DNA of 61,168 nucleotides, the filler included. It is 6 parts of 6 records of this genome, joined end to end, with 100 filler letters (N's around TTAATTAATTAA, not from the genome) between each part and the next. Parts side by side here need not be neighbours in the genome. Positions count along the whole stretch, not along the records: positions 10,997 to 21,256 come from SRR2962707_2283; 5 more parts are not named here. One strand, written 5' to 3'. Below are positions 5,684 through 25,655 of this stretch, piece by piece. Both the position numbers and the translations under genes were made by a program. Position 1 is the first letter of the stretch. Every line of letters starts with the position of its first letter. The notes beneath the pieces were generated by a model. That model was not told the DNA's origin, did not search any database, and saw only the letters and a program-made list of their open reading frames with translations.

Positions 5684-5689
5684 CCCGCC

Positions 5690-5833
5690 CCGGCATGCCG
5701 ATATTGGCGTGAAGACGGGCTGCAAACCCCGGCTTTCTGCGCTTCCGGTGCTCACGTACTGTCTGTACGCTCCGCTCCGGTTCTCGAAAGCCAATGTTTT
5801 CGCCTCGCCTTGACACCAATCTCGACATGCCGG
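5690..5833. repeat. Palindromic intergenic repeat (MITE/RPE-like), copy 2
   Basis: 28-bp imperfect terminal inverted repeats CCGGCATGCCGATATTGGCGTGAAGACG / CGCCTTGACACCAATCTCGACATGCCGG; core CTGCGCTTCCGGTGCTCACGTACTGTCTGTACGCTCCGCTCCGGTTCTCG. Confidence 0.85.
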
Positions 5834-5862
5834 TCTCAAGTCCCAATCATAGGTTCGTTTCC

Positions 5863-7614
5863 ATGGATGTGTTTGCCCTTTTTGAAGGGCGCGTCACCGA
5901 TGCGCTGATCGCGAGTTTCCCCGAGCTGGCTGACAATCGAGAGTTGTTGGGCCGCGTCGTTGTGGAGCCGCCGCGCGATGCCGCCCATGGGGACCTTTCG
6001 ACCAATGCGGCGATGGTGGTGGCCAAGCCGTTGGGCAAGAACCCCCGCGAGGTCGCGACAGCGATTTCCGAGCGGTTTTCTGGCGATGCCGATGTGGCTT
6101 CGGTCGAGATCGCCGGGCCGGGGTTCATCAATTTCCGCCTTCAGCAGAGCGTCTGGCACAAGGTTTTGTCCTCGATTGCCGAATTGGGCGATGATTTCGG
6201 GCGGGCCGACGTGGGGCAGGGCGAGAAGGTCAATGTCGAATATGTTTCGGCCAACCCGACCGGCCCGATGCATGTGGGGCATACGCGGGGCGCCGTCTAT
6301 GGGGATGCGCTGGCGTCGCTCCTCGCCTATGCGGGCTATGATGTTTCCAAAGAGTATTACATCAACGATGCCGGCTCGCAGGTCGATACGCTGGCCCGGT
6401 CGGCCTTTCTGCGCTACCGCGAGGCACTGGGCGAGACGATAGAAATCCCGGCCGGGTTCTATCCGGGGGACTATCTGATCCCGGTGGGGCAGGCGCTGGT
6501 GGAGGAGTTCGGCAATTCACTGCTCGACAAGCCCGAAGCCGCATGGCTGGCGCCGGTCAAGCAGCATGTGCTGGCCGCGATGATGGAATTGATCAAGGCG
6601 GATCTGAAAAAACTCAACATCGAGCACGACGTTTTCTTTTCCGAAAAGACGCTGCACGGGCAGGGTGGAGATATTGACCTGACGCTCGATTGGCTGCGTG
6701 AGCAGGGGCTGGTCTATGAGGGCCGGCTGGAGCCGCCGAAGGGCAAATTGCCCGACGATTGGGAAGACCGCGAGCAGACGCTGTTCCGCGCTACAGAGTT
6801 CGGCGACGACGTCGACCGGGCCCTGATCAAGTCGGACGGAAGCTACACGTACTTTGCCGCCGATATCGCCTATCACCGCAACAAGGTGTTGCGGGGCTTT
6901 ACGACGCTGATCGACGTGCTGGGCGCCGATCATGCGGGCTATGCCACGCGTATTCAGGCGGCGGTGAAGGCGGTTTCGGGCGGCAAGGCGTCGGCTGACG
7001 TGCGGTTCTGCCAGCTGGTCAAGCTGTTGCGGAACGGTGAGCCCGTAAAAATGAGCAAGCGTTCCGGTGACTTGGTGACACTTGCTGATGTTGTGGAAGA
7101 AGTTGGCGTGGACGCAACCCGCTTCATGCTGCTGTTCCGGCGCAACGACGCGCCGCTCGATTTCGACTTTGCGCTGGTCAAGGAGCAGAGCAAGGACAAT
7201 CCGGTGTTCTACGTCCAGTACGCCTATGCACGGACGTTCTCGATCTTCCGCAATGCGGCGCGCGACCTGCCCGATCTTGTTACGACTGAGGCGGCGCTGG
7301 CCGGGGCCGACCTGTCGCTGCTTTCCACTTCTGACGAAATCGAGTTGATCCGGTTGCTCGGATCGTGGCCGCGGCAGGTTGCGGCGGCGGCGCGGGCGCA
7401 CGAGCCGCATAGACTTGCGTTTTACTTGCATGAGCTTGCCGCGCAGTTCCACGCCTTCTGGGGCAAAGGCAAGGAAGATCCCAGCTTACGCTTTGTTAAC
7501 GACGATGACCCGAAACTGACCTTGGCTCGACTCGCGCTTGTGGATGGCGTGCGTCGTGTTCTCGGCAACGGCCTTGATCTTCTAGGCGTGAGTGCGCCGC
7601 AAGAGCTTTCATAA
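5863..7614 (+). CDS. argS: Arginine--tRNA ligase
   Basis: [16 protein letters not shown] (HIGH-like), [13 protein letters not shown]. Confidence 0.97.
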
Positions 7615-7699
7615 TTACGGCGCATTGCTGTGAACAGTTCTGTGGACATGCTCGCAATCAAGGGCAAGTTAAAGCGAAAGACTTTCGGGGCACTGCTCT

Positions 7700-9727
7700 A
7701 TGAACGACACCAAGCACAACCCGGCGAACGCGGGGCAGGATTCCGATGATCTGATCGCGGAACTGGCGCGGCTTGTTGCGCAGGATGCCCGCACGGCTGC
7801 TGCGCCCGCCAGCGCCTACCAGCCCGTCGAGCCTCAGGTTTCAGCTCAGGATGAGCCGGTGCAGCCTGCGGAGGATGATTTTTTCGAAGCCGATCCGGGT
7901 TTCGGGGCGCCGCAGGATTTTGCCGCACAGGATGAAAACCAGGCCGAACGTGTCGAACCGTCGCCGGACTCCGGTCAGAGCGATACGATGCCGGCCTTCG
8001 ATTTCGGGTTCGGAACCGCCCATCAGGTCAGCGTGGACGATCAGCAGACGTCCGGTGACCCAATTGCCAATCTGATCGCGGATGCGGAAGTCGAGACTTA
8101 CGAAAGCGATTCTTCCCAGGACCAAGATTGGGGCAATCACGATGCTCCGCTTCCTGCCGAGCCTGAGCCGGCCCCTTCATATGCCGACTATGGGCGTCGT
8201 GATGACGAATTTTCCGATGCCGCGCAGGTAACATCTGCGGACCGCGATCCGCTTGGCGACATTGAAGCGTTGATCGGTGAGGCGGCGCGCGCCAATTCAG
8301 GCGATGCCGGACTGCCCGCCGGGCGACGGGTGAAATCGAGCTTTCTTGATGGCGTTGAAACCGATGCCGCAGTGGATGCAGCGGAATCGGCCATTCTGGC
8401 CGCCGCTGCTGCCACCGGATCTTCCGTGCGGCGTGTTGAGCCGGCAAATGATCCCGAAGACTGGCTTGTGGCGCCGGCGCCCGCGCCACGGCAAGCCGAG
8501 GAGCGGCCAGAACCCACATTCGAGCCGCAGCCGAGCCAGGAACGCTTCATTCCCGATCCGTTGTTGACTTCGCCTGCGACGCCGCAGCCCGAACCGGCAG
8601 CGGAAACGGCATCCGAATACGCCGACGACGATTATGCCGAAGAGGCCTATGCCGAGGAGCAGGTCGCGCCGCGCCGCTCGCGCCGTGGGCTTGGCGGCTT
8701 TATCTTTCCAATTGCCGCCGGGGCAGTGATCTTCGCGCTGATCGGCGGGGTCTATTTTGCTTTCTTTTCGGGTCCCGGCGATCCGGGCGAGGCGCCGGTG
8801 CTGACGGCCGATGCCCAGCCGCTCAAGGAAGACGCTCCGCCCTCGCGGACCGAATCGGCGGCAAGCGACTCCGTGGTCTTCAGCGAGATCGAAGGCAACA
8901 GCACGTCGCCGGAAGACGAGGCGCTGGTGTCGCGCGACCAGACCAATGGCGCAAGCGGCGCGCAGGTCGCCGAGGTGCTGGCGCCCGAGGAAGGCGAAAC
9001 CGCTTTGGCCAATCGCCCGGTGCGTACGGTGACGGTGCGGCCCGACGGCACGATCGTTCAGGCGACCGATAGCGTTGCCGGTTCGAACGTTCTTCCTGTC
9101 GAACGACCCGATGTGCCGGCCGTTCCCAACAGCACTCTGACCTCCGATCCGATCGGGGAGGCGATTGCGCAGGCTATCGCCGGAAGTGAAACCGCCGAGG
9201 CTGCTGCCGGAACCGAGGTTGCCGCGGCAGATGCCAGCGAAGCCGTTCTGGGTGCTGGTGTGGCCGAGACGACAGAGGGCAACGAGGCGGCCGCGACTAC
9301 GCCCGCTGAAGTTGCCGACGCACCGCGTCCAATCCCGCGCCCTGCCGGGCTGACAACCCAGACCACTGCGGCGACTACGCCTGCTGCCGCGAGCGCAGCT
9401 CCGACCATCGAGACCGTGGCGGCTGCCACGCCCGCGCAAACGACTCCCGCGCCCGCCGCTGCGCCGACGCCCGCGTCCAATGTTGGCGCATGGGTGCAAT
9501 TGTCCTCGCAGCGCAGCGAAGCGGATGCGCAGGCCGATATTCCCTCGTTGCAGTCGCGCTATGGCACGCTGTTCAACGGCGCAACGCCAGAGGTCAGCCA
9601 GGTCGATCTGGGTGAGCGCGGTATCTATTATCGTGTGCGACTGCCGCAGCCCACGTTCGCGCAGGCCAATTCGGTGTGTTCTGCCATTCAGGGCCAAGGC
9701 GGCGACTGTTTCGTGCTGAACAACTAG
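7700..9727 (+). CDS. SPOR domain cell-division protein
   Basis: N-terminal DDLIAELARLV, acidic disordered region, one TM helix, RPVRTVTVRPDG, C-terminal SPOR (VQLSSQRSEA...YYRVR...C...C). Confidence 0.88.
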   Translation: MNDTKHNPANAGQDSDDLIAELARLVAQDARTAAAPASAYQPVEPQVSAQDEPVQPAEDDFFEADPGFGAPQDFAAQDENQAERVEPSPDSGQSDTMPAFDFGFGTAHQVSVDDQQTSGDPIANLIADAEVETYESDSSQDQDWGNHDAPLPAEPEPAPSYADYGRRDDEFSDAAQVTSADRDPLGDIEALIGEAARANSGDAGLPAGRRVKSSFLDGVETDAAVDAAESAILAAAAATGSSVRRVEPANDPEDWLVAPAPAPRQAEERPEPTFEPQPSQERFIPDPLLTSPATPQPEPAAETASEYADDDYAEEAYAEEQVAPRRSRRGLGGFIFPIAAGAVIFALIGGVYFAFFSGPGDPGEAPVLTADAQPLKEDAPPSRTESAASDSVVFSEIEGNSTSPEDEALVSRDQTNGASGAQVAEVLAPEEGETALANRPVRTVTVRPDGTIVQATDSVAGSNVLPVERPDVPAVPNSTLTSDPIGEAIAQAIAGSETAEAAAGTEVAAADASEAVLGAGVAETTEGNEAAATTPAEVADAPRPIPRPAGLTTQTTAATTPAAASAAPTIETVAAATPAQTTPAPAAAPTPASNVGAWVQLSSQRSEADAQADIPSLQSRYGTLFNGATPEVSQVDLGERGIYYRVRLPQPTFAQANSVCSAIQGQGGDCFVLNN

Positions 9728-9808
9728 GCTTCAACGGTTCTCACGGCTTGACTGGTTTGAGGGGAGTGGCAATGCTGCTCCCCTCTTTTGCTTTGCCAGC
9801 GGCGGGAT

Positions 9809-10603
9809 ATGGCCGAGACTTCTGATCCCTGGTTCGATGCAGTGCCCGAGCATGCGCAGACCGATGCCGTGCTGCATGTGGACGTGCGCGGTTACGAAGG
9901 TCCCATGGACCTTCTGCTTGACCTTGCGCGCAAGCAGAAGGTCGATCTTTCGGGTATTTCGGTGCTGGCTCTGGCCGAGCAGTATCTGGCGTTCATCGAA
10001 ACCATCCGTCAGAAGCGGATCGAGGTGGCAGCCGATTATCTGGTGATGGCGGCGTGGCTGGCTTATCTCAAAAGCCGGTTGATGGTGCCCCAGCAAGCCG
10101 ATGATGACGAGCCGAGCGGCGAGGAAATGGCGGCGTTGCTGCAGTTCAGGCTGGCGCGGCTCGAAGCGATGCGAGAGGCAGCGGGGCGGCTGCTCAACCG
10201 ATCGCGGCTGGGGCGCGAGGTTTTTGCGCGCGGGATGCCAGAGCCGGTTTCGATCACGCGGCATGCGTTGTGGGAAGCTGACCTTTATCAATTGCTGCGG
10301 GCCTATGCGGCGCAGCGCGAACGCGGTATTCCGGCTGAATATTCGCCCCACCAGCGGACGGTGTGGGGATTGCAGGAGGCGCGGGAAATTCTGGAACGGT
10401 TGATCGGGCAGAGTTTTGAGTGGATTTCGCTCGATACCTATCTTGCGGACTATCTGGCACGGCCCGAAGAACGGGCAACGGCGATGGCGTCGAGCTTTAC
10501 GGCTTCGCTCGAACTGGTGCGACTGGGGCAGGTGGAGTTGCGCCAGCAGGAGGCTTTTGCACCGTTACTGATGCGCAGGCGGCAGGGGGACAAGCCGCTA
10601 TGA
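9809..10603 (+). CDS. scpA: Segregation and condensation protein A
   Basis: GYEGPMDLLL, LAEQYL, ADYLVMAAWLAYLKSR, SFTASLELVR. Confidence 0.95.
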   Translation: MAETSDPWFDAVPEHAQTDAVLHVDVRGYEGPMDLLLDLARKQKVDLSGISVLALAEQYLAFIETIRQKRIEVAADYLVMAAWLAYLKSRLMVPQQADDDEPSGEEMAALLQFRLARLEAMREAAGRLLNRSRLGREVFARGMPEPVSITRHALWEADLYQLLRAYAAQRERGIPAEYSPHQRTVWGLQEAREILERLIGQSFEWISLDTYLADYLARPEERATAMASSFTASLELVRLGQVELRQQEAFAPLLMRRRQGDKPL

Positions 10604-10896
10604 GTGCGATGGAAAACGATGCATCCGAGCTGCACGAGCGCAATCTGCGTATCCTCGAGGCTCTGTTGTTCGCGTCTGCCGAGCCGGTCGATCTGCGGGA
10701 TGTGCAGCCGTTCTTGTCCGATGGCGCCGATGTGGACGCGCTGATCGATGCGCTGCAGGCGCGCTATGCCGGGCGGGGCATCAACCTGGTGCAGCGCGGG
10801 TCGAAATGGGCGTTCCGGACAGCCGACGATCTCAATTTTCTGTTGCGGCGCGAGGAGACCGATACGCGGCCGCTGTCGCGCGCGGCGCTCGAAACG
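10600..10896 (+). CDS. scpB: Segregation and condensation protein B (3' truncated)
   Basis: LEALLFAS, RGINL, WAFRT, LSRAALET; ATGA overlap with scpA. Confidence 0.93.
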
Positions 10897-10996: not shown

Positions 10997-11020
10997 ACTC
11001 ACTCACTCACTCACTCACTC
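10997..11020. repeat. (ACTC)6 microsatellite at contig end
   Basis: Read directly from sequence. Confidence 0.95.
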
Positions 11021-11225
11021 AACCGTTACAAAACTGCGGAGTTGGCAAGAGGTATGGGCTGTGCGCTTTCTTTTTCGGTGCGTCCAGTGTTATTTTTCCG
11101 TTTGCAGTTTTTGTGCCTGCGTGTGTGTGGGTTTCTGGGCGTGGCTTTCTGCGAGTGCTTCTTGTGGTCGTCGTTCTTGTTGGACTTCCAGTCGATTCTA
11201 AGGCGCGGTGCGGTAGGAGAGCAGG

Positions 11226-14200
11226 TTGCTGGACACACACGCACGGGTGGATGGATTCTCACGGGCAGCTTTGAACCTGCAGCCACGGCCTCGAACGGCT
11301 GTGGGCGAGAGGGTCAAGCCACACAGCAATAGCAAGCGGGAAATTCGGACCCTATTTTTGCTGCGTGAGTTCGTTGCAAGTTGCAACGCTGCGCGTTCGA
11401 TGTCGGGGGAGATGCAAATGCAAAGCAGCATTCGAGGAGCTCCGCCCACTGGACTGACGATGCGTAAATGGCTTTCAAAGGCGGCGACAGGGGGAAGCCG
11501 CAGCGAAGTATCCAGGCCCGTCTCGTCGACTGAGTCAGCGCTGTCGAAATTCGACAGCGCGACTCTTGACCGCATCTCCTCCGTAGCTGTACAAGCTGAG
11601 CGAATCATCGAGAGCGGCTCGAAGAAGCATTTGCCGGTAATTCGCAAAAATTACCGCACGCAAGTTCGTTCGTTGCTCGCTAAGGCTGCTCAAGAAGCGG
11701 CGGCAGGCAAGGAGAACACAGGGGTTGACCAGAGCAGGAGCAGCAGCAGCCTGCACAAACGAAAGGAATCGAATCCATCCACCCATTTGTTCCTCCCGAA
11801 ACACGCGGGTGGTGGAAGCAGACACGGTGGAGAGGGCGGCGGCCCAGGTGGCAGTTTGGAGCTTGCCTTGCACAAAGCAACGTTGGCATACTACCTGTCG
11901 CTGCACCTACACGAGCACAATTACCATCACTTGGCGCTTTTATCGGACTACATACTGCTCATTGAAGTGTGTTGTCGATTTCCCGCGGGATCCCGGCAGC
12001 ATGAAGATGCTGAGATCTTTCTCGTTCGATGTGAATCCATTGTTTCGGAGGAGACCATCGCGAGGCATCCTGACCAGTGCAAAGCATGCGCTGCTCAGCC
12101 CATTGTTGCGGGACTGCTTGAAGACTGGAATAGGCTTGAGTCTGCTCAGAAACTGTTCGCCGCACACACCCACGCTGCCACCTCAATCTATGGCACACTC
12201 CATCCAGCGAGCGGCGACGCGGCGCTGCAAGAGGCTGCTTTTCACGCCAGGCACAATGCTCATGCACTCTGCCTCCGTCAATGCCGAGTTGCGTTGTCGA
12301 TTGTTGTATTGCACGCGGGTTTGTGGAATGCCACTGCTGCGCAGCTGAACTTTCATATTGGGACGCATTTGAGGAGCATGGGCCTACAGTCCCAAGCAGC
12401 CTTCTTTTTCCAGAGGGCCGCTGATGTTTTTGAGTATGTTGCAACCAGTGCTTTGCAGCCCAACTCTGATCGGCCTGCGGGTGGCTATTCCCACTCTCTT
12501 AGTGTTGGACAACCCGTTGACAAGTCAGCTGCTGGTAGTGCTCTGCTGTGGTTTGTTCTCAGTAGTTTCCAACTTCACGCAGTGCAACGAGAAGCTGAGA
12601 ATAACTACCTTGCTCTGCGCCATCTACGAGAGGTGCGGGCTTTGCCGGGGCGCCTTGCAATTCTCGTGTGCGTCAACCTGCAATCCCTGGTGCAATCTTC
12701 TGACAATCGCCTCTTACTGTGTTTGATGGGTTTAGGCATATTTCGTTTTGTGCACACTGGTGCAGTGTGTGGCAACGGACAAACGTGTGAACCGCGGCCG
12801 TGCCAACTGGGTGGGAGCTGCCCGAGCGCAGCGGCTTGACCTAGACCTACACTCTCTTTTGCCTCTGTTTACGTCTGAACGGCAAGATCAAATTTTGCGT
12901 TTTGCGGGTGCCACATCGTTGGCACAGGCTCACGACGGCACTCGAGTGCCTGCAGTTTCGTCAGCAGCGTTCGTGTTGGCAAGTACCACCGGAAAGCCGG
13001 CGATCAGGCAGCTTGCCGTTTGTTGCTTTGAGGCATTGTCGAACTTAGAGCGGCATCTTGATATTCCCACTGCAAAAAGAAGCAAATCCGTTTTCGGTGG
13101 ACCGCACAGCATGGGGCTCAAGGGTGAATTGTTAGGACCAGATGCGCTTGTGTCAACAGCTGAGGGCGGGAATGTAAATTTCCAGTTCGATGCCGCGAAG
13201 CTGGTGAATATTGGGCAGGGGAGTCAAGCTGCGGCTGCTGTCGGCGTGGCGTTGTCAGCTCGCCAGCTTCTCGACGCATGTTCCAATGTATCTGATGCAA
13301 CAACCTTGTCATATTTTCGTGGCGCCGACATTACTGCTGCGGTCCATCGGGTTGACACGCATTTGTCAGCATACGAAGACAAAGACCTGTTAGCGATGGG
13401 GTTTCCGCCTTTTTTGGAAAACGCTTTTTTGCAGCATGTTGGCTCAAGTCAGCAGACTGCACATTCCACTCGCCCGTCAACTTTGCCGCGTTCCCGAGCA
13501 GGGACAGACTGGACTGAAGGGGAGTTGCGTAGGCGGTTTAAGCAACACGTGATTTTCCTGCAAGTCGTGCTTGGCAATGTTGCAGGCGGAAGTGGAAAGC
13601 CTCCCAACCCCAACTTCCACGGACCATCAAATGAAACCGCTGCTAGCACAAGGTCCTGGGACAGACTTCAACAAAGAAAACTTGATCTCGTAGCCTCCAA
13701 TTCCGAGTCGTCCGGAAGCGAGCGAGATGACCTAGTCCGATTGTTTATGCGGCAATTGGGTGGTGGATTTGATGGCAGTGGACTCGGAACTTCCGTTACT
13801 TTGAATGGCGGGCTAGGGACTGCGCATGACAGCGAACTGGCCTCAGCAACGGTCTTGGTCGACATTTACGAGTCAAATCTTGCTCGTGTGTACCAAGGCC
13901 TAGCCCAGAATCTTGCCGCAGCGGAGGGCCATGGTGACACAGAAGGCCCGCCAATGGTTGGTGGGCGCTCATCAGTAGCACCATCTTCGATTCCCTCAAG
14001 CACCATGCAACAGGACATTGCCTTTGCCAGTCGAGCACGCTTTGCAGGTCCCCATGCACGGTACGGAGGAGGGCCGAATGGAGGCGGCTACTCAGCCATG
14101 GCAGCTCCTCATCATGCGTTCCACGTGTCTCCTGGCGTCAGGTCAGGCTTCGAGTCTGGAGCTGGCGGTGGCAATAGGCCGAGCACCCTCATGTCATGGA

Positions 14201-17200
14201 ACACTCTGTCTACAAACCACCAAGTGGGCCCTTTTGGGCAAGGCCGACCGAACGGTGGAGGATGGGCTGGTCTCGGATCTATTGGCGGCTTTACAATGGG
14301 CGCTGGAAGCTTCGGCCCGCCTGGACATGGGGGGTTAGGACTCGGCGCTCTTGGCGGTGCTGGGTCGGGTGACGTTGGATCGGCGGCTGGGATGGGTCCC
14401 GGCGGACTTGGCGTGTCTGCCATCGGAGATGGTGGTCCAGGCGGGCTCGGGAGTGCCAGGACAAGCGGCCTGAGTGCAGGTGCGGCGAATCAGTCGCTGA
14501 TGATGAAAGCTCACAGCGAGTTGGCTTTAGATGAACATTTCAGCGCGGCGGAGTTGCTAGCAGCCATTGAGAGGATCAACTTTCAGGCTCGAGCTGCCTC
14601 GGGGAAGGCTATCATATGTAAGTTGGAATGGGGTCGAGCAGTGGATGAACTGGCTTGTGGAAGCGATGACTTGTGCTCAAATCACCATTGGTACCGCCTT
14701 TGAACATGTTCCATTGCTGCTGTGATCTATTTATTAAACAGCTAACGAACTCCGAGATCGATGGATTGCCTTTGTCAGAGCCTCGCCGAATGGTGAGCGA
14801 TGTGCAGCAGAGCTGCTTACCGAGTTTGTGGAAAACCGTGTGCATGTTTACGCCGTCCTTGGTGACATTGGTCGCCATCGAGCTCGTCATGGGAGTGGCG
14901 GAGCTGGCCGGGCCGGAGGTGACCGCATCATGACAGACGCTTCTGGACGCCGTGTGCATGTCACCCCCTTCACTGCTGATGAGCTGTGGCAAGCAGCTGC
15001 AGGAGCTGTGCTGGCTGTTGGCACTCTCCGGCACCTGCAACGAAAAGTCCGTTCTGACCGTTGCACAGTTTTGCTGTGCGTTTCGATGTTGGCGTTTGAC
15101 CTCAGTACGTTTTTCTTTGTTCGGTGGCAGGCTCGAGGACTTCGAATTTCAACAATGGTGTTGGGGATGGGCGTATTTACGAACCTTTTGCGGCGCCGAA
15201 TGGTGGGTATTGTTGGTATGTTGCCACTGCTATTTGTGTCGACGCTGCTTTCTGCAACATTCACCTCTCACCAAATGAATGCAGGCTGGTCGGCGATGTG
15301 GTAAAATTCTTGCGCTGGGGCTGTTGCGCGGCAAGGCATTACAGCGCGTTGCTCGACGCCTGCACCAAAGTTCAAAGGTTCTAGCAGCCGGATTATTGCT
15401 TCGGCTTGGCACACTTGGCGATGCTGCGTTTGCCCCTCCAGCACAGCACTCGGGTGGAGTGTTGCGCCCTCCGGGCATGGGCGGCCTTCCGATGATGCCC
15501 GGAACAAGCCGCAAGAAAATGGTGCGAAAAATTGAAGAACATGTTTTTCAGGAAGCAATGACATGTCGTTGATTGCGTTTCAGGGATACATTTTTCACAT
15601 GCCCACGTTTGATGTTCCTGTGTAGCGGAGGAAAAAGAACAAGACTCGTGGCGTGTACCTGACGGAAACATTTGCTGATGCAGACGTTGCAGGAAGCATT
15701 TGGGTGCGATATTTTCAGACATTGGGATTGGCGCACGTTGGGGCATTGATCTTCCAAGCACACGCCATTGCTGCATTTCATTTTGTGTGTTTGGTGGCCT
15801 CGAATTCTGCTGTAGGCATCGAAGAATGAAGGTTTTGACTTAGATGCGGTGCTGGGGAGCGACGCTGCTTTGCACGCGCAATTTTCCACTCAAAGAAAAA
15901 AGAAAGAAAAGGTTTTTACACACAATTCGTTGAGACGAAGTGGCGAACTTGCTGCGTACACCCATGTCGTCGATTTGACCTTTTTCTTCTTCGCGACGAC
16001 AATTTGCTGTTGCCTCAGAAAAAGAGTCATTCGAAGAAGACGGGCCCTGAGCTCGGCGCGGATGGACAGCCATTGCCTGAAAAAAGCAAGCCACCCCAAT
16101 TCGGGCCTGAAGGAAATGACCGGCAAAAACTTAGTTTAATGCTCTACAAGTTTCAGGGGAGCGAGCTTGATATTGCCCAGGTCCGTGGCGAATGAAGGAT
16201 TTTGCTTTTTTGTCTGTAGACACGTCACAAAGTGGCTGTTTTTGGGATGACTCAAAAGTTTTTTTTTTCTTATGTGCATGTTTTGGTCACGCAGGCTCTT
16301 GCTGTCTTTGATCTTGAAACAATAACATCTGACATGGTGCAGAAGATGTTCATTGCTACAGAGCCGGGGCGCAATTCTTCGTGAGTGCTGATTGTGTTGT
16401 CGCTTGTGCAGCGGCTTTTCTCCACAGCATGTGCTGAAAGTTTATCCATTTTGTGTGATTCATGGTTGCCAGCTACACCGTTCTCGAGTCGATCAAGGCA
16501 GCTGGAGAGTGGCTGAAAAAGAAGGACCCGGTCACCAATGAGAACTGGCACTTTGAGCAATGGGTTGGCGTAAAAGGCTTGGAAATTGAGGCTTTTTGTG
16601 TCGCGATGTAAGTGGCCTCCGGAGTGGCACCCCTGCTGAGCCATTGCATTCTTGGTTGAAAAATGAGTGCGCATTGCGTTGGCTTGGTTGCTGGTTGAAG
16701 GCATTCTGTGCTGGGCTCTGCAAACGGGTTTTTGACGCGCGTCAAGATTATTCAATTCATGCACAGCTTCGAAGACACTCGACAAAACTTGCTGACAAGC
16801 ATGGTGCGTTCTCGTGGAAAGCTTTTTTTCCTCAGCCTGCAGTACGGAAGACACCCTGAGTCGATCGGCTGGGCATGCTTACGTGTTCCGTAGGAACTCC
16901 TGAACTCAGCACTCACTGAGCTCGTGGAATGCAAGCGGCTACATGTTTTTCTCAAGCTAATGCTTCGCTTGGCAAACAAGCTCAATGAAGGCGGAAAATT
17001 CGCAGGTCCGCACGAATATTTACGATCATTGTTGCCCCTATTTGATATGCATTGACATGCCCTTGCACCACGGACTAAACTATGCTTCAGGTGCTAAAGC
17101 GATATCCGTCCGTGACTTGGATAAGTTGTCCGCGTGCCAAACCAACGAGCGGAAGTCAGCAGTTTACTACATCGTGGAGCATCTCGAAGATGCTGGAACT

Positions 17201-19257
17201 GACGAAGCAAGGAACATTCTTGTAAGTTGATTTTGGAATGTTTGCATGATTCTCGTAAGCAGGTGCGCGAGTTGCAATGGGCAGGGCGTGTTCCGACAAT
17301 TTTTTGCGCGCAAATTGTGTTTCGCGACAGAGCTTCCCGGAAGAATTGCCAGCGTTGGAACGCGCCTCCAAGGTACCACAACGAAATTTCCAAAACAGTT
17401 GCAACGCCCTCCGCAATAAGATGGAATTCATGCGTTCAATGATTGACAAGAAACCACCTGAATGGAGGGTGCGTTGCCGTGACGAAGCAACTACCGTGGT
17501 GCTTTGTGTTTATTTCTCTCCGGTTTTTTGAAAGGCGAATGCCCCCACGCGTCATGTTTCAAGGCAATTCTCGGCGATTGGGTGGAAGAAAAGTCCCCGC
17601 GACTCGATGAAGTGCTTGAATTAAAAAACGTCGTTCTCGCCCAGTATGTCGATAACCGATCGTTACCCATCAAACTGTTGACGTTGATGCGCCAACAGTC
17701 AGCAGCGGTATGTCGGCAACTTGTGATGCCCCTCTTTTTTTTCATCGTGGTAGGTATAAAGAGACCGCAACCCTCTTGCCAATGGAAAAGCCAAATCGCC
17801 CCCCCGTTCTCATTGAAGACTATTTGACGGTTTGTCCCCAGTGCGCCACTGTTTTCGAAGAAGACTTTGTTTCGTGGCGCTAATTCGCTCTGTTGTGGAA
17901 TTTTGCGTAAAATGTCTCGGTGCGCTCTGCCAGGCAATATTGAATTTCGTGTCAACGTTTAGCTCTGAAGTGATTAAGATGAGGAAAAAAAAAGCTGCTG
18001 AGCAGCGCCGCGCCGAAAAAGCGGCCGCCAAGCTGGCGAAAGCAGAGGCAAATGTAAGAAACGGACACATTGGCCACGTGAGAGAGGGGCACTATTGGCT
18101 TTGTGGGAACTTCACGAATTTTCTATTCACTTTATTTATGTGCGCTCTTTTGCTCGCACCCGCCACAGGCCGCGAAGGAAGCTGCGCGAGAGGTATGGTT
18201 GATCCCTGCGTTTTATTGACACGTCATGCTGCTGGCAGCCACCGTCGATGCATCTCCAGGCGAGCACATTGGCGCGACTGTTCCTCATTCCGTAATCTTG
18301 CTGCATTGCTCATCTTGGCCAGATGGACGACTTGCTTGGCGACGGCATAGACGACGCTGATTCTCCAATTCGCAGACGGCCGAAGGCTCGAATGTCCAGC
18401 TCCCTGTCACGCGAGTATTCCGAGGCCGAAGATCGTGCGGTACGATATTGCCGTTAGTGCATACGGATGCACAATTGTGCATTCAATTTCGCAGTCTTGG
18501 CGCGGGTGTCCATTTGCGTTTGTTAATGCCGTAAATTCAACGATGCATAGGCACGTGTAATTCAAGCAAACGCCCGCCGCCGACGTGAGCGTCGTCGACG
18601 CAGGGTTCGTTCGTTTAGTGGATGCATTTGTCTTTTTTTTTTCCGTCTGTTGTTGGTAGCTACCTGCTTTGATCTCACCACCTCTATGAAACATTTTTTG
18701 CCGCCGGATACTGTAACAGCGTGGCCGATCCAACAATGAAGATCGGACCCAAGACCAGTCACAGCCATCAGCGCAGCCCCAAGTCATTGTTTTCACTGGG
18801 CCTTTGCTGAAGGCTCCGAGGCAACACGGCAAATTAAAGACTAATGCTTTGGTATGTACCGCGTGCAGCCAGCGCATGTTTTTTGGAAGACTGTTCCGTG
18901 GTGAAGACGTCAAGTGCTAAGCATGCTTCCTCCGGCTTTGTCCAGGATTTGGTTCAAGAACAACTAAAAATGCGGTGGTTCCGCCTTCGACGGAATGGTG
19001 TGCTTGAATACTTTGCCGACAAGAACATGCTGGAGCGCAAGGGAGTTCTTCGACTGGGACCAGCGGCAACCGTACGGCGCATTGACAGTGCTGGTGGGAA
19101 ATTTGGCTTTGTCGTTGAGAGTGCAGAGGATGGGGCACTTGTGGCTGACGCGGGTACCGACGAGATGGCCAGTCGGTGGGTACAGCATTTGCGTAACGTC
19201 GTCAGTGAAGCGGCTACAGAAGCTCAGTTGAACAGCCCCAATTCGGCAGGGAAGTGA
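11226..19257 (+). CDS. Spliced eukaryotic gene: atypical formin (TPR-like, Gly-rich, FH2, DAD-like, IQ, PH); 5' end uncertain
   Basis: Frame-consistent GT-AG exons: ~11226-12632, 12766-14617, 14742-15046, 15131-15202, 15285-15521, 15626-15703, 15816-15911, 16019-16180, 16295-16380, 16473-16607, 16701-16803, 16894-17005, 17091-17221, 17331-17468, 17564-17643, 17754-17829, 17934-18053, 18169-18192, 18323-18439, 18551-18604, 18720-18851, 18946-19257. Introns are 82-133 nt. FH2-like blocks in order: GSIW, RQKLSLMLYKF, LTRVKIIQFMHSF, LKLMLRLANKLNEG, AKAISVRDLDKLSACQT..KSAVYYIV, FPEELPALERASKV, EDYLTAILNFVSTF. Confidence 0.8.
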
Positions 19258-19401
19258 AGCTGTAAGAACATAAAGTGTGCATGCACCTTGCTTTTGATGT
19301 TCGACAATTACTTCCACAGCCAGCTGCTTCACAGACGCGCGGATACCACCAAAATTGGGAATTGCATGGAAAATAAATGAATAAATTGGGAGAGTATGCA
19401 G

Positions 19402-19938
19402 TTATGATATCATCAAATTCCATCGAAGCGCCTTTTGCATGTCAGGGGTAAGCGTGAGCTCCGCTTCCCGTCGTGGGCGCGCCTTTCCCCCGCTCAACAA
19501 TAGCGGGGTATTCATAGTCGGCGCTGATCCAACCATGAAGTCGTCGTCGCTCTCGTAGCCACTCTTGGTTTGCTTGCTTGGAGTTCGCGGGTCTTCTACA
19601 CGACAAACGAATTGTCCGAGGCCGTCGAAGTATGGCGGGCCAACAAATACGTCATCATTGGGCGCGAACGAAGTGGGCCAGCTCGCCGTATCGGCCTACC
19701 ACAAGCACGCCAAAAGGGAAAAAGAAAATTTAGGAACTCAAACGGTTGGCACAACAGGCGGCGAAGCGTTCAAACTCCTACGCACCGCTTCTGAAGGCTC
19801 GTGCCGCTGACTCCGTGCTTGCAGCTGTGCAGCGGTACACAGAGCGGCCACCGGAACGGCTTCCACCGCTCCACTCCGGAATCGAACCGCGAAAAACACT
19901 TCACCAGAATCATCAACAGCCTGCCGCGCCTGAACCAT
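19402..19938 (-). CDS. Hypothetical two-exon eukaryotic protein
   Basis: ATG 19938 (MVQARQAVDD...), GTGCGT donor near 19785, TAG acceptor near 19696, in-frame second exon ending at TAA 19402. Confidence 0.4.
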
Positions 19939-20085
19939 TTTAGCGACAGCGCAACAGTCCAACAACAGCGGGAGTGAGAGCAGGCAATGGAGCTTGCGAA
20001 GGACACAATACAATTACACTGTGCACGGACGCAACGAAAGCAACACCACGAGAAGGGAGCGGAAGCAGCAATTACTGTTGTTCAG

Positions 20086-21066
20086 TCAGTCGCTGACCTC
20101 ATCGCTGTCCGCAAAAGATGCTTCAAAAGATGAAGAGAAACCGTTATCAACATTGTTCTGCAGACGGTTGAAAGCGGCGGTCGCAGGGCTATCTTCAACA
20201 CCAGCCGTCTCGCTCGACACCTGAGACGCATCGCCCATGTTTCCAGGTGCACCGTTGTTGGCGGTTTCGCTCAGTGCAGGGTTTGTGTTATAATTCACCG
20301 AGTAGAGGCGCTCTCGGCCTGTAGAGTCCAAAAAAACAGTGTCGCTGGGTGGATTGCAACGTCTCAGAATCACAGCTGGGAACCACCACTGCGCGACGAC
20401 ACGCAGGACGTATGTAGCTTCTTGAGCACGCCGCCCATTGACCACATCATCCCTGAGCTCAACTAGTTGCCACAAGGGCGTCCGATCCGCAGAAAGGCAA
20501 TGTAGCTTTTGGTTGATGTCGCTGAAGTAAAGCAAACTTTCTTCCGAGGCTGTACCCCTGCCAGCGCCCGCAGCACCTTTTCGCAATGACGTGCACTGTA
20601 GCGCTAACAAATCTCCATTTTTTTCGTGTGTGGCGACACTCGCAACCTTGAAAATCGCAGCGCTTCGCGTCGATGAGACCAGACACTTGCATTCCGGTGA
20701 CTGGGTGTTCACACACAGCACATCTTGAGACGTCGCCTCCTGAAAGATCAGACTTGATCCAACTTTTGGCACAAAAACTTCGCTGCTGTCGACCGCCACG
20801 CCAAGTCCATCGTCGTCAACGCTCACAGATCGCCCAGTGGTAGGCATTCGGCTGTCATTGCCTGGAGTACCAACATCCAGCGAGTGGCTGTGGCCCACAG
20901 GAGTCCGTGACGGAGTCGGGACGGAGATCCCAGCCGTAGCACTCTGACTGCTCAATCCACGCTGGCGGCGAAAGTTGTTCGTCCATTGCTGCGGAGGCGC
21001 CGAAGGCAGCGAGAAGGACGGACCATCGCGGTTCGAAAGCTGCGGCTTGCTGTCGCAACAACCCAT
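20086..21066 (-). CDS. Hypothetical protein with N-terminal MGCC acylation motif
   Basis: 326-aa single-exon ORF starting MGCCDSK, in AAAATGG start context. Confidence 0.65.
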   Translation of the reverse strand: MGCCDSKPQLSNRDGPSFSLPSAPPQQWTNNFRRQRGLSSQSATAGISVPTPSRTPVGHSHSLDVGTPGNDSRMPTTGRSVSVDDDGLGVAVDSSEVFVPKVGSSLIFQEATSQDVLCVNTQSPECKCLVSSTRSAAIFKVASVATHEKNGDLLALQCTSLRKGAAGAGRGTASEESLLYFSDINQKLHCLSADRTPLWQLVELRDDVVNGRRAQEATYVLRVVAQWWFPAVILRRCNPPSDTVFLDSTGRERLYSVNYNTNPALSETANNGAPGNMGDASQVSSETAGVEDSPATAAFNRLQNNVDNGFSSSFEASFADSDEVSD

Positions 21067-21226
21067 TTTGCCAAGGTTTTTTTCACTGCCTGTCTTGTTT
21101 GTGTTTGTGCTCACCACAGCAAACTACCGACACTTTCGGAACAATGCCTGGCCAACGTTGGCCAGGCACCTATAACGCACGTTGCAGTGAAGCTCACGGT
21201 AAGAAGAAGCAAATCACTTCCAACGT

Positions 21227-21256
21227 GAGAGAGAGCGAGAGAGAGCGAGAGAGAGG
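21227..21256. repeat. GA-rich microsatellite (GAGAGAGAGC)n at contig end
   Basis: Read directly from sequence. Confidence 0.9.
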
Positions 21257-21356: not shown

Positions 21357-21761
21357 TTTGGCCATCCATGGTATGGCGGCGGCGATACGCGCACCAATGA
21401 ATATGCCGGACAGGAAGTGCCGGTGGAGGTCGTGATGCCGGCAGTTGCAACGGTTGCTCATGCGGCTGATCTTGGGATGACGTTCTATACGGGCAAGCAA
21501 TTCCCGGCCGAGTACAAGAACGCCATCTTCTCCGCACAGCACGGCTCCTGGAACCGGACAACGCCGGTTGGCGCCCGCGTCATGGTCACCATGATCGATG
21601 ATGAGGGCAATGCCACCATGAAGCCTTTCGCTGAAGGCTGGATCGACGAAAACGGCGAGTATCTCGGCCGCCCTGTTGATGTGGCGCAGCTGCGTGATGG
21701 CTCGATCCTTGTGTCGGACGACCTTGCCGGCGCCATCTACCGGATCAGTTACTCCAAATGA
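21357..21761 (+). CDS. Glucose/sorbosone dehydrogenase-family beta-propeller protein, C-terminal part
   Basis: LGMTFYTG..FP..Y, AQHGSWNR, GRPVDV...DGSILVSDD..GAIYRI; frame open to contig start. Confidence 0.88.
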   Translation, partial: FGHPWYGGGDTRTNEYAGQEVPVEVVMPAVATVAHAADLGMTFYTGKQFPAEYKNAIFSAQHGSWNRTTPVGARVMVTMIDDEGNATMKPFAEGWIDENGEYLGRPVDVAQLRDGSILVSDDLAGAIYRISYSK

Positions 21762-22339
21762 GAGCGGCAATAGCTTTCGGTCTCGGCGGGCTTTTGCTCG
21801 CCGGGACTGCTCTCGCAGACGAACCTGCTGTCGGTGACCCGGTCGCCGGCAAGAAAATCGCCGGCCAGTGCAGAACGTGCCACGGCATCGATGGCTATGC
21901 GAAAATTCCGATTGCGCCACATATCGGCGGCGAACCGGCATCTTATATCCGCAATCAGCTGACCGCCTTTCGCGACGGCACTCGGACACACGAGATGATG
22001 TCAGTGGTGGCAAAAATGCTGACCGATGAGCAGATCAATGATGTTGCCGCCTGGTACGCCTACCCTATCGCCACGGCAACGCTGACCGCTGATGCATCCG
22101 GCGCTCCGGAGGCCTGCACTGCCTGCCATGGCGTCGACGGCATTGCCCTGATCGAGGATGCACCGAATCTGGCCGGGGAAACCAACATCTACATCGACAC
22201 CCAGCTCAAGGCCTTTCGCCTCGGAAAACGCACACATGAGGTTATGAGTCCGGTGGCAGCAGACATGACCGACGCGGAAATCCGCGCCGTGGCGGATTGG
22301 TACGGCAGCGTCAAACTCGAGATCACGGTACCAGACTAG
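21758..22339 (+). CDS. Diheme c-type cytochrome (c4/c553-like)
   Basis: Signal peptide; two CxxCH motifs (CRTCH, CTACH); ATGA coupling to the upstream dehydrogenase. Confidence 0.92.
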   Translation: MRAAIAFGLGGLLLAGTALADEPAVGDPVAGKKIAGQCRTCHGIDGYAKIPIAPHIGGEPASYIRNQLTAFRDGTRTHEMMSVVAKMLTDEQINDVAAWYAYPIATATLTADASGAPEACTACHGVDGIALIEDAPNLAGETNIYIDTQLKAFRLGKRTHEVMSPVAADMTDAEIRAVADWYGSVKLEITVPD

Positions 22340-22442
22340 ACGACGGTGAACTTTCCCGACCGGGCGGCTCCCCGCAAGCCCCTTGCGCGCATTCAAGCCG
22401 CACCGGCGGGACTATGCGGCTGCCGCAGCCACACATTTCTAT

Positions 22443-22473
22443 GACCCGCCGTGCCCGATAAGCACGGCGGGTC
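22443..22473. terminator. Hairpin between convergent genes
   Basis: Perfect 12-bp stem GACCCGCCGTGC / GCACGGCGGGTC; no strong U tract. Confidence 0.5.
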
Positions 22474-22506
22474 CAGCCTGGTTTGCATTTCCTGGCAATC
22501 GCCTCC

Positions 22507-23244
22507 TCAGCTTGGCCTGGCCATCTCGATGGCATCGGCGCCTGCAGGAATGCGCATCGGCGACGCAGGATCTGTGACCGCGCGCCATACCGCTTCTGCC
22601 ACGTCGGAGGCAGCGGTGCCGTCTGGCACTCCCATTCCGGCAAACGCACTCTCGGCATATCCCGCATAGGCTTCCGGAATGCCACCCTGCATCCGCGGCC
22701 GCGCGTTCTCGCCAAAGCGGGTCGGTGACCGGCCCGGCTCGATCAGCGCAAGGCGGATATTGAATTGCTGGAGTTCAAACGCCAGCGATTGGGTAAAGGC
22801 GGTTATCGCGGATTTACTGGCCGTATAAACCGACAGCAACGGCAACGGAACCAGTGTCACGCTGGATGTGACATTGACGATGACACCCGCCTTGCGGTCC
22901 CGGAACTGCGGCAGCACCGCCTGAATCATCGCCATTGTGCCGAATGTGTTGGTCTCGAATATCTCGCGGACAGTCGCCATCGCGGTGGTCTCGAACACTC
23001 CGAGCAGGCCGATACCGGCGTTGTTGACCAGCGCATCGATCGGCCCGGCAGCCTCGACCGCCGCGCGGATGCTGCCAGGATCATCAACGTCGAGAGAAAG
23101 CACCGTGAGATGGTCTGAAGCGGGAAGCAGGCTGTGATCCGGCTTTCGCATCGTCGCGATCACCTTCCAGCCGCGGTCGAGAAAGTACCGGGCGGTTTCC
23201 AGCCCGAATCCGGATGAGCATCCGGTGATGAGAACGGTTTTCAT
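22507..23244 (-). CDS. SDR family oxidoreductase
   Basis: TGCSSGFG, NNAG, YTASK. Confidence 0.93.
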   Translation of the reverse strand: MKTVLITGCSSGFGLETARYFLDRGWKVIATMRKPDHSLLPASDHLTVLSLDVDDPGSIRAAVEAAGPIDALVNNAGIGLLGVFETTAMATVREIFETNTFGTMAMIQAVLPQFRDRKAGVIVNVTSSVTLVPLPLLSVYTASKSAITAFTQSLAFELQQFNIRLALIEPGRSPTRFGENARPRMQGGIPEAYAGYAESAFAGMGVPDGTAASDVAEAVWRAVTDPASPMRIPAGADAIEMARPS

Positions 23245-23338
23245 GGCAGCTCCTTTGGTTTGAACTGACATCAGGATAGACGGCGACAAGCGGACGTTCT
23301 ATCATTCAAAATCCGTATTTCATTTGCACGAGTCCTGA

Positions 23339-24247
23339 ATGGTTGATCCTCTGGCGGAAATTGTCACGCTGTTGCGTCCTGCTGCACCTTTTTCCAAGCT
23401 TGCCAGCGGTGCGGGCCAGTGGAGCGTGCACCGTGCGGAAAACGGGCGACCGTTCTTTTGCGTGTTGCTCGAGGGCGCCTGCCTGCTTGCCGTGGAGGAT
23501 CATGAACCGGTCACCCTTCATGAAGGCGACTTTGTCTTGATCCCGTCAGCGCGAAACTTCACCATGTCCAACCTCGATCCGGTAGCCGCAGACGACATTG
23601 ACTCGTCGATAGCCTCGCTGCTCGATGGCGAAATCAGGCACGGGCGGCAGGACGGCCCGCCCGATGTGCGTCTGCGTGTGGGGTACTGTGTCTTCGGTTC
23701 TCCCGATGCGGCCTTGCTGGTATCGCTGCTTCCCCGGTTCGTCCACATCCGCGATGATCTGCGGCTGTCAACCCTCGTCCAGCTCGTCGGCGATGAATCG
23801 CGCGCCATGCGGCCGGCCCGCGACATCATCATGCAACGATTGCTCGAGGTACTGCTGATCGAAGCGCTCCGCTCGATAGCAGGCACTGAAGTATCGCCGG
23901 GCCTGCTGCGCGGACTGGCCGATGAGCGGCTGACACTGGCAATCCGGGCCATGCACGAAAACCCGACAAAGCGCTGGACCATCGCCGAGCTCGCCCGCCA
24001 GTCGGGCCTGTCACGCTCGGCGTTTTTCGACAGGTTCCAGCGCCTGGTCGGACTGGCGCCAATGGAATACCTGCTTGCCTGGCGCATGGCGCAGGCCAAA
24101 ACCATGTTGCGGCAACGTGAAATCGGCGTCGGCGAGATCGCCGAGCGCGTCGGCTATGGCTCTGCCAGCGCTTTCAGCGTTGCCTTTACCCGACACGTCG
24201 GCCTGCCGCCGTCGCACTTTGCGCAGCAGGAAATCGATTCGCGCTGA
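23339..24247 (+). CDS. AraC family regulator with cupin_6 domain
   Basis: DPLAEI N-terminus, WTIAELAR..GLSRSAF, VGYGSASAFS; divergent from the SDR gene. Confidence 0.93.
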   Translation: MVDPLAEIVTLLRPAAPFSKLASGAGQWSVHRAENGRPFFCVLLEGACLLAVEDHEPVTLHEGDFVLIPSARNFTMSNLDPVAADDIDSSIASLLDGEIRHGRQDGPPDVRLRVGYCVFGSPDAALLVSLLPRFVHIRDDLRLSTLVQLVGDESRAMRPARDIIMQRLLEVLLIEALRSIAGTEVSPGLLRGLADERLTLAIRAMHENPTKRWTIAELARQSGLSRSAFFDRFQRLVGLAPMEYLLAWRMAQAKTMLRQREIGVGEIAERVGYGSASAFSVAFTRHVGLPPSHFAQQEIDSR

Positions 24248-24320
24248 ACTGTTACACGGCGGCACCACCCGGTGTCCCGCGAGCACGGTTACATGCGTTT
24301 GGCCACCATCGAGCGCGCGC

Positions 24321-25655
24321 TCAGGACAATGTCTCCATCCACCTGCGCAGCTTGTAGGCTGTTGTGGTTTCGTCGATCTCGACGTCTTCGAAGCGGACCG
24401 GCTGACCATCGGCGATGGCGCGCTTCAGCTTGACATTGTGCGCCAGCCCCAGTGGCAGATATCCGGCAGCCACCGATGCCTTCGCGGGGCGCAAGCCGCC
24501 GGTCACGGTGTAGCCGCCCTCCCCGTCGAGGATTTCGCCTGCAGCCAGATCGCGTTTGGCGATGGCCGCGACATCGCCGTTGAAATGTCTCGCGACACCC
24601 GTCGGTTCTCCACGTAACCCGACCGAGGCCACCGACACCGGCAGTTCAAGCCCGATGAGGTGCCAGCGCTTGTAAAGCGAGGAGTAACGGCCGCTGTCAT
24701 CCGTTCGCACCAGATATTCCTGAAAGCAGTTGCGCAGGTACTCCGTGTCCCCCTCAAACACCACCCAGACACCCTGCCTGATGTCATAGGGCACCGGCGT
24801 GCCGTCGCGCGTCAGCGACGACGCCACTTCGACCATTCCCTTTTGCTCGAGATGGCCGCCTTCCGATTTGGGTCTCATGATATTGGCCAGATCCTCGGCG
24901 CCGCCGACAGGAAACTGCAAACCGTTGGTCGGAACCATCAGTCCGGTCGCATTGGCGATTGCCGAAGATTCAATTGCCGGCTTGGAGCCATCGAGGAACG
25001 AGTTGAACATTTTTGGGTTAAGTCGGCCGCGCTCGGCCTTTTCGCGGCTCACACCCCAATGGTCCCATACCGTTTCTGGCGTCGATTTGCGAAATTCCGG
25101 CAGCCATTTGTGCCCGCGCCCTGCAGCCGTCACGTTGAACCCGCAGGTGCGCGCCCAGTCGACCAGATCACAGGTCAGTGCCGGCTGATCGCCATAGGCC
25201 ATCGAGTAGATCACCCCGGCTTCGGCGGCCTTTCGCGCCAGCGCATAGCCGCAAAAGGCATCCGCTTCGACCGTGACGTTGATAACGTGCTTGCCGTTGT
25301 CAAATGCCCCGAGGATATGATCGATCGCCGCGACCGGCGCTCCGGTGCATTCGATGACGATATCGATCGCCGGATGGGCGACAAGCGCCTGCCAGTCATC
25401 GCCCACATGGGTTCCCCCGTCTTTGGCAGCCTGGTCAAGCGAAGTGGCAGCAAACCGCTCCGGTTCCCAGCCAACAAACTCCATGTTCGAGCGTGCATTT
25501 GCCGGCGACAGATCCGCCACGCCGATCAGATGAATGCCTGCAAGCTTGCGCACCTGTGACAGGAACATGGTGCCGAACTTGCCCGCACCGATCATGCCGA
25601 TGCGGATTGGATTGCCGGACTCGGCACGCTGATTTAACATTAAAAACAGGTTCAT
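24321..25655 (-). CDS. NAD(P)-dependent oxidoreductase, homoserine-dehydrogenase-like, with C-terminal SAF domain
   Basis: IGAGKFG Rossmann motif, GDQP, DGSKPAIE, AKRDL..GE.LDGEGGY, LPLGLAH. Confidence 0.85.
   Translation of the reverse strand: MNLFLMLNQRAESGNPIRIGMIGAGKFGTMFLSQVRKLAGIHLIGVADLSPANARSNMEFVGWEPERFAATSLDQAAKDGGTHVGDDWQALVAHPAIDIVIECTGAPVAAIDHILGAFDNGKHVINVTVEADAFCGYALARKAAEAGVIYSMAYGDQPALTCDLVDWARTCGFNVTAAGRGHKWLPEFRKSTPETVWDHWGVSREKAERGRLNPKMFNSFLDGSKPAIESSAIANATGLMVPTNGLQFPVGGAEDLANIMRPKSEGGHLEQKGMVEVASSLTRDGTPVPYDIRQGVWVVFEGDTEYLRNCFQEYLVRTDDSGRYSSLYKRWHLIGLELPVSVASVGLRGEPTGVARHFNGDVAAIAKRDLAAGEILDGEGGYTVTGGLRPAKASVAAGYLPLGLAHNVKLKRAIADGQPVRFEDVEIDETTTAYKLRRWMETLS

Follow-up and report, generated by a model that had tools for sequence, protein, structure and literature searches.

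The window analysed here is a 61,168-nt stretch of DNA that is made up of six contigs, joined by linkers of the form N44-TTAATTAATTAA-N44. Its second contig (10997-21256, 10.3 kb) holds the whole of a candidate gene, which lies on the plus strand at 11400-19257 and is predicted to encode a formin. Unbranched actin filaments are built mainly by formins, whose classes differ in the module that places or switches them. We confirmed that the locus carries a 22-exon eukaryotic gene, with 21 GT-AG introns (82-130 nt) that join into a single frame. Its product would combine an N-terminal domain of tetratricopeptide repeats (TPR) with the actin-assembling FH2 domain of formins and a C-terminal PH domain.

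Structure of the gene

The gene model was built by hand from the DNA and its stop-to-stop frames, and was phase-checked at every junction. A naive codon-usage dynamic programme, whose path ended at 15829, was set aside for the hand-built model. The coding length is 5,685 nt, or 1,894 codons without an internal stop, from the first in-frame ATG (11400) to the stop codon (19255-19257). We thereby rebuilt the gene that an earlier, sequence-only reading of this DNA had described as hidden, with 22 exons, 21 introns of 82-133 nt and roughly 1,900 aa. The span given there (11226-19257) ends correctly, but its start is a TTG taken from the bacterial-code ORF track, and its 133-nt upper intron length arises if 12765 is taken as the acceptor of intron 1.

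Exon 1 (11400-12632, aa 1-411), whose frame is open from the first ATG, encodes the N-terminal region with the TPR-like domain. Intron 1 (12633-12735, 103 nt) has the donor GTGCGG and an ambiguous acceptor (12735, 12765 or 12831). Short conserved blocks and a Gly-rich low-complexity stretch at about 14047-14487 make up exon 2 (12736-14617, aa 412-1039), which is followed by intron 2 (14618-14741, 124 nt, GTAAGT...ACAG), where the read-through frame stops after 28 codons. Exon 3 (14742-15046, aa 1039-1140) is phase-consistent and has a leave-one-out coding score of +27 bits, with no known family. The stretch that follows (15047-15284) is uncertain: it is either a single intron of 238 nt or a pair, intron 3 (15047-15130) and intron 4 (15203-15284), with a possible exon 4 of 72 nt (15131-15202) between them. 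Introns 3 and 4 have the donors GTCCGT and GTGGGT and the acceptors GCAG|G and GCAG|G, and exon 4 has the weakest coding score of all exons (0.10 bit per codon).

Downstream, exon 5 (15285-15521, aa 1165-1243) contains a short FH1-like Pro/Gly segment at 15429-15503, and is separated by intron 5 (15522-15625, 104 nt, GTGCGA...GTAG) from the FH2 span at 15626-17990. This span comprises exons 6-9 (15626-15703, 15816-15911, 16019-16180 and 16295-16380), exons 10-13 (16473-16607, 16701-16803, 16894-17005 and 17091-17221) and exons 14-17 (17331-17468, 17564-17643, 17754-17829 and 17934-18053), with introns 6-16 between them and phase-consistent junctions throughout. The ambiguous junctions in the gene are the intron 1 acceptor, the choice of one or two introns in 15047-15284, and the intron 6 donor (15704 or 15737); every alternative at these junctions keeps the frame.

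The model stands well apart from chance. On the real strand, at least 16 GT-AG introns of 79-133 nt are needed for read-through, whereas 19 of 20 first-order Markov surrogates need 27-33 and the remaining one has no path; the reverse complement likewise has no read-through path with introns of this kind. A G is found at donor position +5 in 20 of the 21 introns (0.28 of all 470 GTs in the region), a T at +6 in 14 of 21 (0.29 of the same GTs) and a pyrimidine at acceptor position -3 in 19 of 21, splice statistics that are slightly circular, as the consensus was used to choose at three or four ambiguous junctions. T content is 0.29-0.43 in introns and 0.04-0.30 in exons. All 22 exons scored positive when coding and intron composition were compared in a leave-one-out test. 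A codon table derived from exons 1-2 only gave +95 bits in frame for exons 3-22, compared with -152 and -228 bits out of frame.

Conservation in other sequences is consistent with the same exon boundaries. The 431-aa protein P0003 is 89% identical to exon 1 over aa 21-411, and the similarity ends after ...LRHLRE, at the donor of intron 1 (12633). Exon 2 is matched by the 535-aa protein P0002 (E 5e-60; identity 35% by BLASTP local alignment and 43% by MAFFT), where the similarity ends at ...AASG(K/E)AII, at the GTAAGT donor of intron 2 (14618), and then gives way to divergence. These similarity ends support the predicted donors of introns 1 and 2. As relatives of exons 1 and 2, P0003 and P0002 place the N-terminal region in at least two other organisms. 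Further downstream, a low-depth 287-nt contig of run X3 that covers 15368-15658 differs from the window at 11 places, nine of which, including both indels (deletions of 1 nt and 6 nt), fall inside intron 5. Only two differences fall in the flanking 187 exonic bases, both within 15368-15521, so the part of the gene from 15368 onward looks to be under constraint.

We also compared the window with the contigs of run X1 at full depth. Single-base length differences occur at eight homopolymer runs (11490, 14329, 16823, 17735, 17799, 17985, 18633 and 20618), four of them in exons, and are typical of long-read homopolymer error in one of the two assemblies. Two exonic sites could be checked, 11490 and 14329, and at both the reading frame of the window is preserved in homologues on either side. 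Run X1 also has a polymorphic bubble (15406-15490) that overlaps the FH1-like segment, with variants at 15431 and 15433 and a minor 1-nt deletion at 15460, which suggests two alleles or strains in the sample. The bubble is tiled by X1 contigs, and the X3 contig independently bridges 15368-15658; nothing in this tiling and bridging suggests that the gene's two halves were wrongly joined.

Domains of the predicted protein

The N-terminus is predicted to be a divergent TPR domain of the kinesin-light-chain type, with TPR-like repeats at 11856-12449 on the plus strand (approximately aa 153-350). In phmmer searches of 1.84 billion representatives, exon 1 matched P0004, a protein with 15 TPR_12 repeats, in six stretches (E 1e-6), and the TPR_12 protein P0005 over aa 153-350 (E 1e-4; 29% identical to exon 1). 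P0005 may be the exon 1 counterpart from the organism of P0002. A profile made from exon 1, P0003 and P0005 was searched against solved structures, where its matches were all TPR proteins save one at E 0.96. They included the TPRs of kinesin light chains KLC1 and KLC2 (E 6e-6 to 7e-5) and residues 826-929 of 9ya0_BA (E 2.2e-5), a 5,051-aa 'Formin 1' that has the length given for Toxoplasma FRM1. The TPR-like N-terminus proposed from the sequence is thus borne out. In Pfam, the best result for exon 1 was TPR_NPHP3 (17.4 bits, E 0.003), and no Pfam TPR threshold was reached; its ESM Atlas neighbours are TPR clusters (0.93-0.94), which we treat as a lead only.

Exon 2 consists of short blocks conserved in P0002, with low-complexity and Gly-rich sequence between them. 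It matches no Pfam family at E<=1, and its profile has no relative among solved structures; exon 3 is likewise free of Pfam hits. The GBD and DID/FH3 families (PF06371 and PF06367) gave no Pfam hit at E<=1 in exons 1-3. The exon 5 frame then reads ...APPAQHSGG..RPPGMGGLPMMPG..., which provides the FH1-like segment; the long Gly-rich stretch upstream is not proline-rich.

An FH2 domain is very likely present in the predicted protein. The scans for it were run exon by exon rather than on the spliced protein (PF02181 cut-off 34.8 bits). Pfam FH2 was matched by exon 12 (15.2 bits, profile positions 185-218) and exon 14 (14.5 bits, positions 263-301), and exon 13, with 43-44 residues, is of a length to cover the 44 profile positions that lie between the two matches, so that the blocks are colinear with the profile and correctly spaced. 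Against solved structures, exon 12 had a single match, to Inverted formin-2 at the GN.LN-type helix, and exon 14 had six, each of them to Diaphanous homolog 1. Within the 15.6-18.0 kb exons to which the sequence-only reading had assigned the FH2 domain, two exons therefore match Pfam FH2, and formin structures only. By our own arithmetic, two of 14 fragments would agree on one family out of 24,736, at E of about 0.01-0.02, with a chance of the order of 1e-5 to 1e-6. It is the colinearity of the two exon matches, the restriction of their solved-structure matches to formins, and this low chance expectation that make the domain very likely.

Beyond the FH2 domain, a Lys/Ala/Glu-rich helix, read from the translation, may form the coiled coil proposed earlier; it spans 17970-18192, from the end of exon 17 across intron 17 (18054-18168) to the 24-nt exon 18 (18169-18192), which has the best coding score per codon among the exons. 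Exon 19 (18323-18439) encodes MDDLL (18323-18337) and the basic cluster RRRPKAR (18371-18391), both seen in translation, just after FH2 and hence at the position expected of a DAD. The exon matches no Pfam family at E<=10, and Drf_DAD, Drf_GBD and Drf_FH3 gave no Pfam hits. The MDDLL motif lacks the further hydrophobic position of the DAD core. The DAD proposed earlier thus keeps its MDDLL and basic cluster but has no profile support.

The IQ motif proposed for this tail likewise has no profile support. Exon 20 (18551-18604) encodes an Arg-rich stretch in which the dipeptide 'IQ' lies inside a run of arginines, and this fits only a relaxed IQxxxR....R pattern. The IQ consensus is IQxxxRGxxxR with flanking hydrophobic positions, and Pfam IQ (PF00612) gave no hit at E<=1 on the enclosing ORF piece (18551-18736).

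The C-terminus is a predicted PH domain, at the Pfam threshold, in agreement with the original proposal. Pfam PH gave the ORF piece a score of 25.5 bits (cut-off 25.1, E 2e-5), and exon 22 with its exact boundaries scored 24.6 bits; among solved structures, exon 22 matched 2dn6, a PH domain, best (E 0.021) and BTK next. The domain is split across two exons: exon 21 (18720-18851, with both junctions in phase 0) encodes a linker and the first PH strand or strands from about 18783, and exon 22 (18946-19257) encodes the main PH body and the stop codon. Since the Pfam match begins at profile position 16-17, the domain must start upstream of exon 22.

A spliced formin gene and its alternatives

We estimate a probability of about three in four that one spliced nuclear gene of a microbial eukaryote encodes a TPR-FH2-PH formin of approximately 1,894 residues. 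The predicted order is a divergent kinesin-light-chain-type TPR domain, about 800 mostly low-complexity residues, a tiny FH1-like Pro/Gly segment and FH2, then a charged helix, MDDLL with its basic cluster, an Arg-rich stretch and the C-terminal PH domain. From what is directly observed, namely the gene structure, the conservation of exons 1-2 elsewhere and the TPR, FH2 and PH similarities, we infer that all parts are carried on one transcript; established knowledge of formins suggests that they could act as follows. An FH2 dimer would nucleate actin filaments, ride their barbed ends and elongate them, while the PH domain and the neighbouring polybasic stretches would hold the C-terminus at a phosphoinositide-bearing membrane. 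The TPR domain could attach the protein to a partner structure, by analogy with Toxoplasma FRM1. Regulation of FH2, or help with nucleation, may be the role of the MDDLL/basic tail, and as there is little FH1, the use of profilin may be limited.

Several results weigh against this interpretation. The FH2 scores of exons 12 and 14 total 29.7 bits, below the curated 34.8, a shortfall that follows from scoring each exon rather than the spliced protein. The other 10 of the 12 FH2-region exons, scanned singly, have no Pfam FH2 match, so the earlier statement that all FH2 blocks occur in order holds for exons 12 and 14 only. Three of these 10 exons gave unrelated sub-threshold matches (Ponericin, HAAS/Arg_repressor and TAF8_C) that we took as noise. 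Of the seven FH2-region exons searched against solved structures, four (exons 8, 10, 11 and 13) had no match and exon 17 had one spurious match (E 2.7); exon 13 also had no usable match in the ESM Atlas. The FH1 region amounts to one short segment at 15429-15503, with two PP pairs and a PG-rich motif, which is a minimal FH1. The AlphaFold2 model of exon 1, built from three sequences, had a mean pLDDT of 37 and was unusable. No full-length relative was found for exon 1 among longer proteins, where a search with FH2 exon 14 returned only the window's own ORF (P0006), and searches of genome contigs and viral contigs for relatives returned nothing. A metagenome locus (L001) shares an exact 8-residue seed and is otherwise weak and not colinear with FH2, and was dismissed as a chance match. 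None of the 21 junctions of the formin gene has transcript support, and no contig of run X2, whose kind is guessed, covers the gene. For the latter reason we discounted the share of sampled words of 11200-19400 that X2 holds (0.65, equal to the 0.62-0.66 expected for exons alone), and did not count it as expression or junction evidence. Lastly, the N-terminal half is connected to the FH1-FH2 half by way of 15047-15284, the least certain stretch of the model.

It is at this stretch that the locus might instead divide into two adjacent or overlapping genes, namely a TPR and low-complexity protein with a membrane-anchor-like C-terminus, ending at 15302-15304, and a short FH1-FH2-PH formin from the ATG at 15279 or later. 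Such a pair could exist because the unspliced exon 3 frame runs on through two hydrophobic stretches to the stop at 15302-15304 and the ATG at 15279 opens the FH1 frame; the weakness of exon 4, an intron 3 that is in frame and stop-free, and the want of any homologue that covers both halves point the same way. However, the two same-strand frames would overlap by 26 nt, and the ATG at 15279, which is the only one ahead of the FH1-like part that shows constraint, would fall inside the frame of the other gene. Consensus donors and acceptors are present in both candidate introns, whose T content (0.34-0.40) is like that of the other introns, the hydrophobic 'segments' are what translation of T-rich intron sequence is expected to yield, and all splicing alternatives preserve the single frame. 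We therefore regard two genes as distinctly unlikely and a single gene as highly probable. A third possibility, that the locus encodes no working formin, whether through decay of the gene, chimeric assembly or a chance resemblance of a helical protein to FH2, would accord with the sub-threshold FH2 scores of single exons, the eight homopolymer differences from X1 (four exonic) and the polymorphic bubble in the FH1 region. Yet the frame is intact across 22 exons, homologues hold it at 11490 and 14329, the independent X3 contig spans the bubble, and two colinear FH2 matches would arise by chance with a probability of the order of 1e-5 or less, which leaves this explanation very improbable.

A further alternative accepts one gene but assigns it to the apicomplexan-type Formin-1 (FRM1) lineage, as a true member from a free-living or parasitic relative to which a PH domain was added. 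The order of TPR followed by FH2 is alike, nearly all apicomplexan FRM1 orthologues are described, in the excerpt consulted, as having TPR and a C-terminal FH2 (PMC12693976), and the exon 1 profile has a match (E 2.2e-5) to Toxoplasma Formin 1 (9ya0_BA), in its TPR region. Ten structure chains of kinesin light chains nevertheless score better in the same search (E 6.3e-6 to 1.6e-5), with four more just behind, so the FRM1 match may reflect no more than the general TPR_12 type. Toxoplasma Formin 1 is also present in the solved-structure set, yet neither exon 12 nor exon 14 matched it at E<=10, where INF2 and mDia1 appear, although this is a weak sign. FRM1 proteins are 2,675-5,051 aa long, and no PH domain is reported for FRM1 in the excerpts consulted. 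Membership of this lineage is accordingly unlikely in our view.

More speculatively, the TPR-FH2-PH protein could stand for a line of formins, found outside the apicomplexan parasites known so far, that kept a Diaphanous-style MDDLL/basic tail and the C-terminal PH but uses a kinesin-light-chain-type TPR instead of GBD/DID as its docking or regulatory module. We offer this as a long shot. If true, the apicomplexan FRM1 design could have its free-living counterpart, or its forerunner, in this protein, and a new type of autoinhibition might arise by the tail folding back onto the TPR domain. When the MDDLL exon and the TPR region (aa 140-411) were modelled as a complex, the score was 0.00 in a run without controls, a result that counts neither way.

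The five companion contigs (1-10896, 21357-41088, 41189-48755, 48856-54728 and 54829-61168) look bacterial, with long and densely packed ORFs. Eight ORFs sampled from them encode ScpA, arginyl-tRNA synthetase, SPOR, BCCT, PhoX, M48 and M23 peptidases, and a pyridine-nucleotide oxidoreductase. An alphaproteobacterial SAM riboswitch (SAM-alpha) lies at 48941-49015. Thus, the formin contig looks like a lone eukaryotic contig inside an apparent bacterial bin, and it carries a practical warning: when a eukaryotic contig is filed among bacterial ones, bacterial gene calling sees only fragments of its genes. The contig begins with an (ACTC)n repeat (10997-11020) and ends, at about 21220-21256, in a GA-rich, GAGAGAGC-like repeat; these microsatellites probably mark where the assembly broke.

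A neighbour gene on the minus strand (19545-21083) is convergent with the formin gene and lies about 290 nt from its stop codon. It contains two GT-AG introns, which read as CT..AC on the plus strand (19695-19784, 90 nt; 19929-20096, 168 nt). A contig of 1,281 nt from run X2 lacks both introns and joins the sequence on either side of them, which indicates that short GT-AG introns are real on the formin contig. The pieces of the neighbour gene match no Pfam family, and so give no clue to the taxon.

Comparison with known formins

Formins with a TPR domain have so far been described for apicomplexan parasites, where this domain tethers FRM1 to the apparatus used for invasion. If a different microbial eukaryote has a compact formin of the TPR-FH2-PH type, that protein would offer a simpler system for the role of TPR in formins and, together with an FH2 tree, could show the origin of the FRM1 design. 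The combination of TPR with FH2 is the described architecture of apicomplexan FRM1, according to the excerpts consulted (PMC12693976, PMC6688858, PMC12819142). One of these sources reports that FRM1 of Toxoplasma is anchored to the preconoidal P2 ring by its TPR domain, with FH2 remaining flexible (PMC12819142), and another names SNAP1/SNAP2 and rLoop as regulatory elements of FRM1 (PMC12693976). The predicted protein resembles apicomplexan Formin 1 (TgFRM1, PfFRM1) in its N-terminal TPR, in an FH2 far downstream and in having no GBD/DID, a feature of both. It differs in length (about 1.9k aa here, 2.7k-5k aa in Formin 1), in its C-terminal PH and MDDLL/basic tail, and in FH2 exons that match animal formins, not TgFRM1, among solved structures. 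Its TPR domain has that of kinesin light chains (TPR_12 type) as its best solved-structure relative (E 6e-6 over about 125 residues), but is part of a formin and scores below every Pfam TPR threshold.

Diaphanous-related formins of the mDia1 type have the order GBD-DID-DD-FH1-FH2-DAD. The predicted protein shares with them its best exon-level matches, which are to the FH2 of mDia1 and INF2, and the MDDLL and basic cluster at the DAD position. Unlike them, it has no Drf_GBD, Drf_FH3 or Drf_DAD Pfam hits, and no armadillo-type DID was detected.

A PH domain in a formin also has precedent. The PHCF proteins of holozoans are described as PH-PH-FH1-FH2-PH, without G, DID, DD or WH2-like parts in the account consulted (PMC5628938). 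Combinations of PH with FH2 are reported, in the excerpt consulted, for two stramenopiles and Monosiga, and stramenopile formins are noted there for domain shuffling (PMC2386819). The predicted protein resembles both PHCF and these PH-FH2 proteins in the C-terminal PH that follows FH2, a likeness by domain order. It differs from PHCF in having TPR in place of the N-terminal PH pair, with no PH hit in exons 1-3 (Pfam, E<=1).

With TPR plus FH2 (FRM1) and FH2 plus PH (PHCF, stramenopiles) both in print, the undescribed formin class proposed by the sequence-only reading is overstated. Its view that the full domain combination is unusual holds for the triple, as TPR, FH2 and PH in one formin were not found in full-text literature (coverage that leaves out subscription journals), but both pairs have been described. 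The gene most likely encodes a formin with a new mix of parts, each of which is already known in other formins.

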